A stretch of DNA of 64,000 nt, taken from contig JAXGLX010000002.1 of assembly GCA_040768985.1 (NCBI GenBank), positions 4,485,871 through 4,549,870 of the forward strand, in the 5' to 3' direction. Positions 7,827 through 43,763 of the stretch are shown in pieces. This DNA is from Acidobacteriota bacterium (GTDB lineage Bacteria > Acidobacteriota > JAAYUB01). Each line of letters opens with the position of its first letter. Position 1 is the first letter of the stretch. Position numbers and translations under genes: made by a program. A model generated the notes under the pieces. That model ran no database searches. It worked only from the letters and a program-made list of their open reading frames with translations, and was not told the DNA's origin.

Positions 7827-8289
7827 CAGTGCACACCTGATAACAAAATAACAAGCCAGGCCTGCCGCCTGATCCAATGTGCGTACAAGAATGACCGGAA
7901 CAGTCTGAGTCAGGTTAATTCAGCAATACCGCGATGTCAAGGGATTGTTGCCGGAATCCAGGTTCGTCGGCACGCCGGGCGATGAAACAGAACGGTGCCT
8001 CCGACCCGAATCGCCGCGCTCGGATGGCCGGAATCAGCGGAGTTGCGGCGTTAATGAACGAGTCACAGCCGGAGCATGGTCGGTTGATGATCAATCCCAT
8101 GCTGAAATCCTGTTCGACCCGCCGCGTGCCGTGGGTCGCCGGGAGGGACGCCTGAAGGTTGTGCGTGGCCCAGGTGCGCACGGTACGGGGGGGGCGACGG
8201 GCCCATCCATCACCACGCCGACTGTTTGGTTCCGGCTCCGCCGGGTTGGGATTACGAATCAGGATGACGCGCTCGAACCATCAACGACC

Positions 8290-8650
8290 AACTATCCGCG
8301 ATACTGTGAACCTGTGAATCCGTGAACATTCCAACGTTCGAACATTCAAACGGCTCCATTACGAACACGATCACGATTACGGATTACGAGCTGGAACCAT
8401 CAACTCTCAATGAGCGGAAACGAGCCTCGAGCCTCGAGTCTCTAGCCTCGATTACGATCACGATTACGAATTACGATTACGAATCTCGATTACGATTACG
8501 AATCACGAGCACGAGCCATCAACTCTCAATGAGCGGAAACGAGCCTCTAGCCTCGAGCCTCTAGCCTCGATTACGATCACGATTACGAATCTCGATTACG
8601 ATTACGAATCACGAGCACGAGCCATCAACGATCAACCATCAACGATCAAC
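8290..8650. repeat. Minisatellite array: two tandem ~105-120-bp units (approx 8397-8515 and 8516-8620) built from GATTACGA / CACGAGCACGAG / CCATCAAC / GAGCCTCTAGCCTCGAG submotifs, plus flanking partial units
   Basis: Direct reading: unit ccatcaactctcaatgagcggaaacgagcctc[g/t]agcctcgag...cgattacgatcacgattacgaat...cacgagcacgag occurs twice in tandem; second unit lacks one 13-nt tacgattacgaat subunit. Confidence 0.8.
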
Positions 8651-39535: not shown

Positions 39536-39671
39536 GGACGGGACCTCCTGCGAATCACGAGTGGCACGATCAGTCTACCACGCCCGGAACGGATCCTGTT
39601 TGAAACCCTGCGGATTACGATGTATCATTTTTACGGTGTCCGGATTTCGAATCGCATGCAGGAGCAAACCG

Positions 39672-40511
39672 ATGAAGCCACTGCCAACCGTCTGGATGGG
39701 CGCGCTGATGCTGGTGGCGCTTGCCGGCGCCGCCGCGGGCCAGCAGCAAGACGCCCGGGAATGCAAGGACCACCCGCTGTTCACACGGATGCCCGGCTAC
39801 TGGATCCACAGTTGCGTCGAACGGCAGTTCGACGCGTTCGACTTCATTGTGGGCCCGAACAAGAAAACCAGCCATGTGGAAGGCCAGTTGTGGAAAATCA
39901 ACTACTACCCCCAGAACAGCCTCAATCCGAAACCCAGTGAGCTCCAGATCCAGCGCAACTTTCAGAACGCGGTCCAGAAGCAGGGCGGCAAGGTGGTCTG
40001 GACCGAAAAGGCCCAGGACACCTACATGCTCGTCAAGGACGGCGTGGAGGTCTGGGTGCATCTCAGGGCCGAATTCACCGGCAAGTACTTTCTGACCATC
40101 GTCCAGAAGCAGGCCATGGCGCAGGACATCGTGGTCGACGCGGCCGCGCTGGCCCAGGGGCTGGCCGCCGAGGGGCACATGACGGTGGAGGGGATCTATT
40201 TCGACACCGGCAAGGCGGTGATCAAACCCGAGTCGGCGCAGGCCATCGGCGAGATCGCCGGTCTGCTGAAGTCGGATCCGACCCTCAAGGTGTTCGTGGT
40301 GGGGCACACCGACAGCGTCAGCACCGTGGAGGTGAACCTGAAGCTGTCCCAGGACCGGGCCCAAGCGGTGCTGCAGGCGCTGGTTAGCCAGCACGGCATC
40401 GATCCCGCCCGGCTCCGGGCGCACGGCTGCGGCCCCTTCGCCCCCGTGGCCACCAACGCCACCGAGGCGGGCCGGGCCAAGAACCGCCGGGTGGAACTGG
40501 TGAAGCAATAA
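39672..40511 (+). CDS. OmpA-family protein (C-terminal OmpA-like peptidoglycan-binding domain) with signal peptide
   Basis: In-frame tail of track ORF 38880-40511 from MKPLPTVW; C-terminal NRRVEL motif; paralog of 46986-47831. Confidence 0.8.
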   Translation: MKPLPTVWMGALMLVALAGAAAGQQQDARECKDHPLFTRMPGYWIHSCVERQFDAFDFIVGPNKKTSHVEGQLWKINYYPQNSLNPKPSELQIQRNFQNAVQKQGGKVVWTEKAQDTYMLVKDGVEVWVHLRAEFTGKYFLTIVQKQAMAQDIVVDAAALAQGLAAEGHMTVEGIYFDTGKAVIKPESAQAIGEIAGLLKSDPTLKVFVVGHTDSVSTVEVNLKLSQDRAQAVLQALVSQHGIDPARLRAHGCGPFAPVATNATEAGRAKNRRVELVKQ

Positions 40512-40541
40512 CCAGGCACTATCCGCCGCGGGTCCGGCGGA

Positions 40542-42239
40542 TCAGGAGCCAAAAAACCGCAGAAACTTCCGCTCGCCGTCGTCGGTGCCGATGAGGATCA
40601 GTTCGGCGCCCGCCGCGAGGGGCGTCGCCGGATCGGGGTTGATGGCCAGGCCGCCGTCGGCCCGGATCGCAATGACGGAACAGTCCGTGGCCGCGCGGAT
40701 CCCCGATTGGGACAGGTTGCGGCCCACCAGTGACGCCGGAACCGCCAGGCTGAAGATGTTCAATCCTTCGGCCAGCATCCAGGTGTCCTCGTTGCGCAGG
40801 AAGTTGAAGATGGCGTCGGCGCCCAGCGCGGCGTACGACATGACGAAGTCGGCCCCGGCGCGGTGCAGCGTCGAGACGTTGCGATTGAGATTGGCGCGGC
40901 TGAGGATCTGCATGTCCGGCCGCAGGCTGCGCAGGTACTTGGTCAGGTAGATGTTGACGGCGTCGTCGTGGGTGGTGATGAGGGCGGCGGGGGTCTTGTC
41001 GATCCAGGCCCGCTGCAGCGTGCGGATATCGGCGGCGTCGCCGATGACGTGGTGCTCCTGGTCCTCCACCTGTCGCGGGTTTTTCTCGACGACCCGGTAG
41101 GGGCTGCCCCGCTCCTTGAACCGCGCGGCGATCGTGTCGCCCACCCGGCCGCTGCCGACGATCAGGATCGGATCCTGGGTCAGCTCGCGGAGATGGTAGC
41201 GTGAGAACTCCGCGTCGAACGCCGCCAGCCCCGCTTCGGCGCCGGCCAGCACGAGGGCGCTGGTGCGGCCGATGCGGCGGTCGGCGCGCGGAATCTCGAA
41301 CCGTCCCCGCTCCCAGATCCCCACGATGCTGAGTCCGAATCGCTCGCGCAGCCGGCTCTCGGCCAGCGTCTGGCCCACCAGCGGGGTGCCCATGGCCGCG
41401 AACTCGGCGATCACCAGCTCGTCGAAGCGGCTGATGATGTTGGCGCGGCAGTCGCCGCCCACGGTCCAGGCGGCCAGGGAGCGCCCCAGGATGTCGTAGA
41501 TCTGGATCACCTTCGTGCTGCCGGCCATCTCCAGGATGTCCACGGAGTGGGGGGAATCGGCGGTGGTGAGGACGGGAACCTCCTCGCTCAGCTCCCGGAC
41601 GGTGAAGGCGACGTTGGTGTTGATCTCGTCGCGGCTGGTGGCGACGACGAGCGCCGCGCGGTCGGCGCGCAGCCGGCGATATGTCTCCGGGTCATCGATA
41701 GCCCCCACGGCCACCCGGATGCCCACGTCGTACAGCTCCAGCGCATGCTTGAAGTCGTCCACCACGAGGACGTAGTCGCAGCGGTGGGCCTGCAGCTTCT
41801 CGATCAGGGCGGCCGTAACCGGATCGTAGCTCGTGATGATGACGTGACCCCGCGTCCCGGGCGGCAGCTCGCGGGGAGCGCGGTTGCGGGCCTCGGCCTC
41901 GATCCAGGGGCCGTAAAAGAACTTGATGAACATGAAGGGGAGCAGGGTCAGCAGGAAGATCATCCCGGACAGCAGCACGACGATGGAGAACGCTTTGCCC
42001 AGGTCCGTCGCGAAGGTGATGTCGCCGAAGCCCAGCGTGGACATGACCGTGAGGGTCCAGTACACCCCCGTGATCCAGGAGTGGTCCTGCCCTTCCGCGG
42101 CCATGATGTAATGGAAGATTACGCTGTAGACGGCCACCATGCCCGAAAGGACAAGGAGAAAATTGAGCAGCTGACGGAGATTGCGCCGGGTGCTGGCCCG
42201 CTGGAAAAAATAGCTGACGACGGCGGGATTGAATTTCAT
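40542..42239 (-). CDS. Potassium channel protein with two RCK/TrkA-like domains
   Basis: Track ORF 565 aa; selectivity filter TLGFGD; two Rossmann-like blocks downstream. Confidence 0.85.
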   Translation of the reverse strand: MKFNPAVVSYFFQRASTRRNLRQLLNFLLVLSGMVAVYSVIFHYIMAAEGQDHSWITGVYWTLTVMSTLGFGDITFATDLGKAFSIVVLLSGMIFLLTLLPFMFIKFFYGPWIEAEARNRAPRELPPGTRGHVIITSYDPVTAALIEKLQAHRCDYVLVVDDFKHALELYDVGIRVAVGAIDDPETYRRLRADRAALVVATSRDEINTNVAFTVRELSEEVPVLTTADSPHSVDILEMAGSTKVIQIYDILGRSLAAWTVGGDCRANIISRFDELVIAEFAAMGTPLVGQTLAESRLRERFGLSIVGIWERGRFEIPRADRRIGRTSALVLAGAEAGLAAFDAEFSRYHLRELTQDPILIVGSGRVGDTIAARFKERGSPYRVVEKNPRQVEDQEHHVIGDAADIRTLQRAWIDKTPAALITTHDDAVNIYLTKYLRSLRPDMQILSRANLNRNVSTLHRAGADFVMSYAALGADAIFNFLRNEDTWMLAEGLNIFSLAVPASLVGRNLSQSGIRAATDCSVIAIRADGGLAINPDPATPLAAGAELILIGTDDGERKFLRFFGS

Positions 42240-42377
42240 GGCCCCTCACCACCTGGGTGGTAATCGATCGATGTCGTCGGGCAAAACTGATCTTAGAGGC
42301 TTTCTCGGTGGCTGTCAATCAACCGAGCGCCCGCTGATGGTCGGAACGGCCGGCCCCGCCGAAGGTGTCAGGACGTA

Positions 42378-42822
42378 CCACCTTCGACCCGCCTCGCGGG
42401 TCGCGGCTCAACGATGATTGGTTCAATACACCCCGGGCTCGCGTCCGGGGTTACCCATGCGCGTTGATGAGACTGCCCTTGGTTACAGGTTATTAATTTC
42501 CAGCAAGGAGATTGTCGGCGGGGAAACGACCCGCGGCACGCGGGTCGAATATGGGTAGCCCCGGGTGAAACCCGGGGGCCGTTCCGCCCCGCCGTGAGCC
42601 GGGGCGACCCGCGTCGCGGGTCGAATAGGATCGGCCGCCGGAGCGGCTCAGGGCCGGTTTCAACGCCTTGACGGCACCCGTTTGTCGCATCCTCCCACCG
42701 AGCTCCACCCCACCTTCGACCCGCCTCGCGGGTCGCGGCCCAACGATGATCGGCGCCACAAACCCCGGGCTCGCGCCCGGGGCTACCCACCTTCGACCCG
42801 CCTTGCGGGTCGCTTAACCAAT
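42378..42822. repeat. Cluster of REP-like GC-rich palindromic elements: ~80-bp unit in two direct copies (approx 42378-42457 and 42708-42788), a partial copy (42790-42813) and inverted hairpin fragments (42527-42623)
   Basis: Units share ccaccttcgacccgcctcgcgggtcgcgg...ccccgggctcgcg(t/c)ccgggg(t/c)taccca; internal inverted repeats cgacccgc/gcgggtcg and ccccggg/cccgggg. Confidence 0.7.
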
Positions 42823-42944: not shown

Positions 42945-43763
42945 ATGCATCCAGCGCTTGCCTTCATGAGCCGGCCGGGGCGGATTCTGGCCATGATCCA
43001 CGTCGGGGCCCTGCCCGGCACGCCGCGGAGCCGCGGGTCGATGGCGGAGGTCGTGGAGCGGGCCGCGGCCGAGGCGGCCGTCTACCGCGACGCGGGCGTG
43101 GACGCGCTGCTCGTGGAGAACATGCACGACGTCCCCTACCTGAACCGCGCCGTGGGCCCCGAGATCACCGCCGCCATGACGGTGGCGGCCCAGGCGGCGG
43201 CCCGCGCCGGCGGGCTGCCCACGGGCGTCCAGATCCTGGCCGGGGCGAACCGGGAGGCGCTGGCGGCGGCGCTGGCCGCGGGGTGCGCGTTCGTCCGGGC
43301 CGAAGGATTCGTGTTCGGCCACATCGCCGACGAGGGCTACATCGACGCTTGCGCCGGCGAGCTGCTCCGCTACCGCCGCGCCATCGGCGCCGAAGCGGTG
43401 GCCGTCCTGGCGGACGTGAAGAAGAAGCACAGCTCCCACGCCGTGACCGCCGACGTCGACATCGTGGAGACCGCCCGCGCGGCGGAGTTCTTCGCCGCCG
43501 ACGGCGTCGTCGTCACCGGGGTGGCCACCGCCCGGGAGACGGATCCGGAGGAACTCGCCACCGTGCGCGGCGCGGTGGGCGTCCCCGTCCTGGTTGGTTC
43601 GGGCGTGACGGAGGCCAACGTGGACCGGTACCTTTCGCACGCCCACGGACTCATCGTCGGGTCGCACTTCAAGGTGGACGGCTGCTGGGACCGGCCGGTG
43701 GACGCCGACCGGGTTCACCGCTTCATGGACCGGGTGCGCGCGCTGCGGGAGCGCGGCGCATGA
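42945..43763 (+). CDS. BtpA/SgcQ-family TIM-barrel protein
   Basis: Track ORF 272 aa; N-terminal block ILAMIHVGALPGTP. Confidence 0.75.
   Translation: MHPALAFMSRPGRILAMIHVGALPGTPRSRGSMAEVVERAAAEAAVYRDAGVDALLVENMHDVPYLNRAVGPEITAAMTVAAQAAARAGGLPTGVQILAGANREALAAALAAGCAFVRAEGFVFGHIADEGYIDACAGELLRYRRAIGAEAVAVLADVKKKHSSHAVTADVDIVETARAAEFFAADGVVVTGVATARETDPEELATVRGAVGVPVLVGSGVTEANVDRYLSHAHGLIVGSHFKVDGCWDRPVDADRVHRFMDRVRALRERGA

Follow-up and report, generated by a model that had tools for sequence, protein, structure and literature searches.

Hairpin repeats between the K+ channel and BtpA genes of an Acidobacteriota bacterium: a probable REPtron remnant of a subclass 1.2 Y1 transposase

The TrkA-type K+ channel gene and the BtpA gene of an Acidobacteriota bacterium are divergently oriented and separated by a 705-bp non-coding gap, which holds a cluster of palindromic repeats. 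The question raised by this locus is what kind of element the repeats are and how they came to be there. It was addressed in the window, by which we mean the whole 64-kb stretch of DNA that was analysed, and in related strains, metagenome contigs and distant lineages. In our reading, to which a probability of roughly 0.7 is given, the cluster consists of REP-type elements grouped in BIME-like fashion and is the remnant of a REPtron that belonged to a Y1 transposase of subclass 1.2.

The gap contains five copies of hairpin A (TTCGACCCGC-N3-5-GCGGGTCG, 19–21 nt) and three copies of hairpin B (CCCCGGGN-loop-NCCCGGGG, 19–20 nt). These are organized into arms of ~105 nt, each made of A, a 27-nt spacer, B, an 11-nt linker and a second A, and two inverted arms form a composite of 286 nt. 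The features are given below with their coordinates in the window and their strand or orientation.

40542–42239, minus strand: flanking gene, TrkA-type K+ channel (Pfam domains TrkA_N, TrkA_C and Ion_trans_2)
42290–42318, minus strand: match to a sigma-70-like promoter of the K+ channel gene, not within the repeats
42378–42459, plus strand: truncated arm 1 (arm profile 45.5 bits, E 4e-13)
42497–42498, unstranded: empty site, at which sister strain L196 has an inserted 572-nt classical IS200 (147-aa TnpA)
42524–42630, inverted orientation: inverted arm
42527–42812, unstranded: 286-nt composite, a REPIN/BIME-like imperfect palindrome (composite profile 301 bits)
42527–42547, minus strand (inverted): hairpin A copy a with a 5-nt loop, then AATATGG (42548–42554)
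42527–42578, unstranded: deletion/duplication junction, at which L196 and L172 hold a 761-nt gene-bearing unit
42555–42577, plus strand: GTAG tag (42555–42558) and hairpin B copy b, CCCCGGGT-GAA-ACCCGGGG
42605–42623, minus strand (inverted): hairpin A copy c, then AATAGG
42631–42709, unstranded: variable centre of the composite, 79 nt
42710–42815, direct orientation: direct arm
42717–42735, plus strand: hairpin A copy d, after CCCACCTT
42763–42812, plus strand: B-A module of B copy e (42763–42782), linker CTACCCACCTT and A copy f (42794–42812)
42945–43763, plus strand: flanking gene BtpA, first of a BtpA-PfkB-Indigoidine_A operon
8111–8138, plus strand: decayed lone A-type hairpin (TTCGACCCGC...GTGGGTCG), a weak match (arm profile, E 0.7; composite profile, E 0.005)

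The composite runs from the inverted arm (a-b-c) through the variable centre to the direct arm (d-e-f), and within it the B-A module measures 50 nt with a constant 11-nt linker. Truncated arm 1 consists of a CCACCTT foot, A (42385–42403), the 27-nt spacer, B (42431–42450) and a TTACCCA tail; the terminal A hairpin is absent, and the sequence is identical in L196. The flanks of each hairpin are polar and unpaired, with CCAYRTT before A and CTACC after B, the latter being GGTAG ahead of the hairpin on the other strand. Thus GTAG lies directly 5' of B at 42555–42558 and its complement CTAC 3' of B at 42783–42786. Together with its tag, copy b measures 23 nt: GTAG, a perfect 8-bp palindrome and a loop of 3 nt (hairpin proper, 42559–42577). 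Hairpin A carries a TTCGA / CCAYRTT foot in place of the GTAG tag.

Much of this anatomy had been described in the original prediction, in which an 80-nt unit with two hairpins was said to occur twice in direct orientation, with a partial third copy and inverted hairpins in between. The two direct copies were recovered at 42378–42457 and 42710–42789 (89% identical), with A and B in each, the partial third copy at 42786–42813 and the inverted copies at 42527–42623. The 80-mer itself is better replaced by the ~105-nt arm, which is the natural unit. The cluster was also said not to be CRISPR-like, and a CRISPR array is indeed ruled out by the irregular spacing and by the mixed orientation, which runs +, −, + across 42378–42812.

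Exact matches to hairpin A (CGACCCGC-N3-GCGGGTCG) were found at 42385, 42605, 42717 and 42794, four against an expected 0.39, a number reached in none of 100 shuffles. A loose B pattern alone was not above chance (5 found against 3.95 expected), so the evidence for hairpin B is its fixed linkage to A. The inverted arms of the composite are 82% complementary over 39 nt, and as single-stranded DNA the composite folds into one long hairpin (−96.8 kcal/mol, z = −5.4). Profile searches of the 64 kb returned no clear family copies besides these, the decayed A-type hairpin at 8111–8138 apart. Coding repeats were considered and rejected, as the ORFs overlapping the repeats are without a Pfam match; the repeat region is non-coding. 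attC sites were likewise considered and rejected.

For a search beyond the window, public genomes were scanned with hairpin A alone, which proved too unspecific: of its 116 matches, most were fortuitous or fell on unrelated palindromes within coding regions, terminators or CPR elements. The informative matches were L014, L026, L119 and L109, and true B-A modules were present in Acidobacteriota MAGs only (L014, L026 and L119). A pattern scan of metagenome contigs for B-linker-A returned 74 stretches with ~85 true modules, in which the GTAG/CTAC tag of B is kept. The modules fall into two subtypes, T1 with the B loop CTCGCG and a 3-nt A loop, and T2 with the B loop TTTCA and a 5-nt A loop, and as in the window the two pair tail-to-tail in a composite of ~290 nt. 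This composite aligns over its full length to ~35 loci whose flanks do not match those of the window; by flank similarity these loci, on related metagenome contigs, group into 19 clusters. Arm geometry is kept across 22 composites.

All 60 element regions examined are intergenic, and by crude gene calls the copies lie between convergent (10), tandem (16) or divergent (3) genes. Four contigs of one sediment assembly, which have equal coverage (~11.4×) and include the locus orthologous to that of the window, carry at least five composites; we infer from this that there are several composite copies per genome. Target-site duplications were looked for at the flanks of 38 composite ends and none were seen, which rules out a DDE-type MITE.

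Whole composites are 63–90% identical between loci. The centre keeps its length (61–86 nt) and has a sequence just 20–75% identical, whereas the hairpin stems are essentially invariant (70–100% conserved); loops, spacers and especially the centre drift. Such a pattern would be expected for hairpins that are recognised by a protein. On the equal-coverage contigs of the single assembly, composites are 63–78% identical and their centres, at 20–50%, almost unrelated, so transposition is not recent or the hairpins alone are maintained, which argues for a spread that was old or slow.

A candidate enzyme was found by inspecting the ORFs next to modules in related contigs; tblastn with an approximate E. 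coli RAYT sequence gave no match. Among the modules of locus L181 lies a 149-aa ORF with a Pfam Y1_Tnp match (E 5e-19), and a copy of this gene, 65% identical to that of L181, is carried by L172, which is orthologous to the window's locus and comes from a related strain (91% identity in BtpA). Database protein P0001, whose NCBI source is an "Acidobacteria bacterium" MAG, has the same sequence as the L172 protein. P0001 could be read on 24 contigs, and the K+ channel gene, BtpA or both adjoin it in 8 of the 10 places shown. In the other two (L202 and L205) a DDE insertion sequence lies downstream, and these are read as the same site as the K+ channel/BtpA locus. Across the 10 places shown on related contigs, the 149-aa gene was thus seen at a single locus only.

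The relationship between these strains and the window is most easily followed in L196, which equals the window plus two extra segments. One is the 572-nt classical IS200, which is inserted at window position 42497/42498 and encodes a 147-aa TnpA (Pfam, 146 bits); a second copy of this element is found in L198. The other is the 761-nt unit, which comprises A hairpin c', centre', A hairpin d', the 149-aa Y1 gene and a second a-b segment. Both the 149-aa and the 147-aa Y1 genes are absent from the window. The breakpoints of the junction cannot be placed more precisely because they lie inside the directly repeated a-b segment. Loss of the gene by homologous recombination is therefore the simplest account, or equivalently its gain by duplication; on the simplest reading, the strain of the window lost the Y1 gene by recombination between the direct a-b copies.

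The locus is structurally polymorphic among close strains, with at least six alleles. In L181 the Y1 gene is duplicated in tandem together with its flanks, and a copy from L181 lacks the second His of the HuH. In further strains arms have been added, segments between A hairpins deleted, an IS inserted or the K+ channel gene replaced. A number of short-read contigs stop within the cluster. In L172, L196 and L181 the Y1 gene is flanked by hairpins.

Classification of the 149-aa protein was based on its motifs. An alignment of 21 homologues (148–149 aa) showed D-H-x-H, W-Q and Y-x3-Q-x2-HH to be invariant, and P0001 itself has DHLH, with L in the middle position of the HuH, WQ and Y114-x3-Q-x2-HH. 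The published signature of TnpA-Y1 subclass 1.2 is a length of ~148 aa, DH[ILV]H, WQ, Y-x3-Q-x2-HH and a conserved C-terminal tail (PMC6006769). The protein matches subclass 1.2, to which its sequence would assign it, in length, motifs, C-terminal tail and, apparently, low copy number. It does not carry Y-x3-NP, the signature of class-2 RAYTs. The nearest solved structures are those of IS200-type TnpA (2F4F and 2A6M), at weak E values of 4e-4 to 4e-3. Subclass 1.2 was described by Quentin et al. in 2018 as close to IS200 TnpA, not IS-like and low in copy number, as occurring mostly in Cyanobacteria and Bacteroidetes, and as having no associated REP sequences (PMC6006769). Unlike that description, A/B hairpins lie on the flanks at every locus inspected here, and this Acidobacterial lineage has them in dispersed form. 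In the literature searched, no later paper was found that ties subclass 1.2 to repeats. We know of no demonstration of activity for a protein of this subclass.

Six further loci with homologues 43–51% identical were then compared: L109 (Cyclobacteriaceae), L206 (Terriglobia), L207, L208 (Algoriphagus), L211 and L213. In all six, B-type and A-type hairpins lie within ~100 nt of the Y1 gene. The B-type hairpin has the form CCnnnGG-TTTCA-CCnnnGG with a CTAT tail, or, on the opposite strand, with (G/A)TAG before it, and the A-type hairpin has a TTCRAC foot. Between lineages the middle three stem positions of B covary (CCGTAGG/CCTACGG, CCGCAGG/CCTGCGG, CCGTGGG/CCCACGG, CCCTAGG/CCTAGGG and CCCCAGG/CCTGGGG), while loop and tail remain constant. 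Lineages differ in how the hairpins are arranged around the gene; L211, for example, reads A-CCGTGG-GTAG-B, gene, B-CTATTCATGGTT-A, and both it and L109 differ from L196. As A/B hairpins flank Y1 homologues in distant lineages, the hairpin pair is a property of the gene family and not of this locus.

When the cluster was compared with known systems, the closest likeness was to REP sequences and their REPtrons. Like REPs and BIMEs, the elements are short palindromes, rich in GC, that lie outside genes. Hairpin B is built exactly like the group-3 REPs of Stenotrophomonas, that is, a 5' GTAG, an 8-bp perfect stem and a 3-nt loop in 23 nt; for those REPs, RAYT cleavage at a nearby CT and a guide role of GTAG were shown experimentally (PMC8266576). 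The clusters of alternating orientation in the window are BIME-like, and the inverted doublets that fold as one hairpin are REPIN-like. As in REPtrons, an HUH/Y1 gene has repeats on its flanks, in this case in sister strains, where it was seen at a single locus, and the gene has been lost by deletion in some E. coli strains (PMC3733652) as it appears to have been here.

There are also differences. The enzyme is of subclass 1.2 (Y-x3-Q-x2-HH, 148–149 aa) and not a class-2 RAYT (Y-x3-NP), and in place of a single REP the repeat consists of B and A in fixed combination, joined by a conserved linker of 11 nt. The copies do not form a near-identical population and are far more diverged than typical REPIN populations. 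The host is an acidobacterium, with relatives of the system in Bacteroidota, whereas the known REP/RAYT systems are those of E. coli, Pseudomonas and Stenotrophomonas.

Several of these properties are shared with IS200/IS605 elements and their PATEs, namely an HUH/Y1 enzyme, subterminal hairpins, the lack of target duplication and small non-autonomous derivatives with two ends. The repeats could accordingly be the ends and gene-less, PATE/MITE-like derivatives of an IS200/IS605-type element that is still autonomous, where either the 149-aa gene or the neighbouring 147-aa IS200 TnpA moves along with its ends. The IS200-type structures nearest to the 149-aa protein fit this proposal, as do the 49.8 bits that the L181 ORF scores against NCBIfam transpos_IS200, the tandem duplicate of gene and flanks in L181, and the IS-like bracketing of the gene in L211 by A-GTAG-B on one side and B-CTAT-A on the other. 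The classical IS200 inserted in the same region in L196, with its second copy in L198, makes a second Y1 enzyme available in some strains.

We nevertheless consider the proposal unlikely. It is close to the REPtron reading and is disfavoured because the 149-aa gene was seen at a single locus, the 24 contigs with P0001 showing the K+ channel and/or BtpA beside it in all but the two of 10 places that differ by the downstream DDE element. The NCBIfam score is under the equivalog cutoff of 55, subclass 1.2 has been described as low-copy and not IS-like (PMC6006769), and in contrast to IS200/IS605 the gene was not found to be multi-copy, tnpB is absent, and the composite is an inverted doublet of like arms and lacks distinct left and right ends. 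Mobilisation by the classical IS200 is disfavoured because its end hairpins (CCCTCGCC-TTCA-GGCGAGGG) differ from A and B, and none of them was found next to the dispersed composites.

A second alternative is that the modules act as RNA, either as small structured RNA genes of the Acido-Lenti-1 type or as cis-acting RNA elements, which would have become numerous by gene duplication. In a covariance-model scan for known RNAs, one of the checks named with the original prediction, the best Rfam match of the region was Acido-Lenti-1 (RF01687) at 42763–42812, with model positions 1 to 46 aligned to the module; its score of 23.9 bits (E 0.003) is under the gathering score of 37. A covariance model was also built from 46 published Acido-Lenti-1 seed sequences and searched over 205 kb. 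In the 64-kb window it matched 42763–42812 alone (26.8 bits, E 2e-4), and elsewhere it matched modules of related loci and, in the unrelated L211, the module 53 nt downstream of the Y1 gene (22 bits, E 0.003). Rfam scans of Y1-flanking regions in other lineages, including L206, returned no RF01687 match.

The resemblance is one of architecture. The seed alignment shows Acido-Lenti-1 to consist of two hairpins and a CUA linker and to occur in multiple, tandemly clustered copies. It shares with the window module an 8-bp hairpin, a ~4-nt loop, a CUA-initiated linker of ~12 nt and a short second hairpin, the last being longer in the window (8 bp against 5 bp). Like the window family it is multi-copy, tandemly clustered and found in Acidobacteria; its copies in Lentisphaera show the same A-spacer-B-linker-A arm, and one environmental seed sequence shares the CGACCCGCCGGGUCG hairpin. 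Because the score is below the gathering threshold and the L206 modules gave no match, the window module is not counted as a member of RF01687, and is treated as a relative that fails the membership threshold. Rfam files Acido-Lenti-1 (Weinberg et al. 2010) as an sRNA of unknown function and records no link to a transposase; as this family is itself multi-copy and tandemly clustered, the label says little on function.

The strong RNA fold of the region (z = −5.9) is in keeping with an RNA element, as is the scarcity of copies in divergent promoter regions elsewhere (3 of 29), which would be expected of 3'-UTR elements. The cluster in the window, however, lies between divergent genes and contains both orientations, and promoters and U-tract or other intrinsic terminators were looked for at the repeats with none found to be associated. 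An RNAalifold analysis of 53 aligned arms gave no compensatory changes, the stems being simply invariant, so the alignment lends no support to a selected RNA structure; the program paired the two identical A hairpins with one another, an outcome that says nothing about RNA structure. The multiplicity of the modules is also better explained by their physical linkage to a DNA transposase gene than by gene duplication. An RNA origin is therefore quite improbable in our estimation, and a role at the RNA level, be it as sRNA, mRNA stabiliser or terminator, might exist as an exaptation.

Of the two identities offered in the original prediction, the structured RNA locus thus finds little support, given the sub-threshold Rfam match, the invariant stems of the 53 arms and the mixed orientation. 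The REP/MITE-type family holds in its REP part, with some 19 flank contexts in related contigs, intergenic siting and a Y1 gene among the repeats of sister strains; the MITE part, in the DDE sense, falls with the absence of target-site duplications. Of the refuting outcomes named with the prediction, a lack of further copies was examined in related assemblies, which do carry such copies.

That the hairpins are structural or regulatory DNA sites maintained by the host (protein-binding, supercoiling or insulator elements between divergent promoters, or recombination sites), with the nearby transposase gene incidental, is very improbable: the conservation of stems where centres have diverged completely does suggest selection on the hairpins, and E. 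coli BIMEs are known to bind IHF, gyrase and Pol I (PMC2817692), but the association with the Y1 gene is not incidental, since analogous hairpins flank it in at least six distant lineages, and the free variation of unit number and arrangement between close strains speaks against a fixed regulatory architecture.

On the REPtron reading, the gap between the K+ channel and BtpA genes would be the home site of a small HUH/Y1 single-strand DNA transposase, the gene for which is kept in sister strains. In the strain of the window, recombination between the direct a-b copies would have removed the gene and left the repeats behind. The subclass 1.2 protein would be the mobilising enzyme, acting in trans. 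By analogy with IS200/IS605 TnpA and RAYT/REP systems, it may bind the folded hairpins on single-stranded DNA, for instance at the replication fork, and cleave beside them with the tag or the linker as guide. It would then rejoin the strands, so that doublets were copied or moved to other intergenic positions with no target duplication. Recombination between the many identical A hairpins would meanwhile make the locus hypervariable between strains.

The class of element is ordinary, and the general biology of REPs is well known. Three points are new: the partner belongs to a Y1 subclass for which no repeats had been reported; two hairpins make up the unit as a fixed module, which is related to an orphan Rfam motif; and the window preserves a "home" locus after loss of the gene. 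A broader proposal, which we regard as tentative and put at somewhat under even odds, is that the B-A module, Acido-Lenti-1 included, is the missing DNA partner of subclass 1.2 and that the two make up a third kind of REP-transposase system. If so, this system would stand beside class-2 RAYT/REP and IS200/IS605, with a range that takes in Acidobacteriota, Bacteroidota and, probably, the PVC phyla. The enzyme would recognise two hairpins together, one with a GTAG/CTAT tag and a TTTCA loop and the other with a TTCRAC foot, and an Rfam "sRNA" family would really be a substrate for single-strand DNA transposition.

For this lineage, the repeat cluster explains both the breaks in short-read assemblies at the locus and the structural differences between close strains in the gap between the K+ channel and BtpA genes. 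For the two families concerned, the findings suggest that an orphan Rfam sRNA motif belongs to a family of DNA-level repeats, and they offer a definite partner, open to testing, for a Y1 subclass that in the 2018 description was neither an insertion sequence nor linked to REPs.

Beyond the sister strains, copies or possible remnants of the Y1 gene, which encodes a 149-aa HUH transposase of TnpA-Y1 subclass 1.2, were found at two related loci, designated L181 and L137.

L181, 1024-1473, 1949-2398 and 2835-3204: Y1 gene with its flanking modules, duplicated in tandem with a 925-nt period
L137, 7373-7522: 50-aa fragment with 46% identity to the C-terminal portion of the Y1 protein

The HuH motif of the L181 protein reads H-L-L, the second His having been lost. 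Directly downstream of the repeat cluster, this locus has a bacterial RNase P RNA (288 bits). The L137 fragment, from a related genome, may represent a decayed second Y1 gene; at the corresponding locus, contigs L125 and L014 carry a single B-A module (hairpin B, an 11-nt linker and hairpin A).

Classical IS200 elements, with end hairpins of the form CCCTCGCC-TTCA-GGCGAGGG, were identified in the sister strains, one of them within the repeat cluster itself.

L196, 5108-5680 (equivalent to window 42497/42498): classical IS200 inserted in the repeat cluster, encoding a 147-aa TnpA (Pfam Y1_Tnp, 146 bits)
L198, 6536-6909: second classical IS200 copy, approximately 5 kb downstream

Neither copy is present in the window. 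In three Acidobacteria MAGs (L012, L038 and L098), an A-like hairpin is enclosed by a different repeat starting GTCATTCTGAGCGGA. This seems to represent a further family of Acidobacterial repeats that has the TTCGACCCGC...GCGGGTCG core in common.

Further features were annotated elsewhere in the window.

8250-8650 and 9600-9820: arrays of non-coding DNA with a 6/7-nt period (CGATTA, CGAGCCT, AACCATC)
8685-9473, minus strand: orphan 262-aa ORF between these arrays
17410-17533, minus strand: molybdenum cofactor (Moco) riboswitch, RF01055 (Rfam, 63.8 bits versus a gathering score of 36)

The riboswitch was the sole Rfam match in the window to exceed a gathering threshold, and the orphan ORF gave no Pfam match. 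A 119-nt higher-order unit is also present in the arrays. About half of the composites (imperfect palindromes) at other loci have comparable 7-nt periodic tracts at most 700 nt away; periodicity scores of at least 0.7 were obtained for 9 of 60, the 95th percentile of the window background being 0.44.

Gene content beside the cluster differs in a strain that is 95-98% identical, represented by L182.

L182, 4620-6620 (orthologous to window ~39600-42500): replacement region of ~2 kb

Here, left of the cluster, a segment coding for other proteins (ORFs of 118 and 465 aa) has replaced the K+ channel gene together with part of the OmpA-family gene. One boundary of the variable gene content falls at the repeat cluster.
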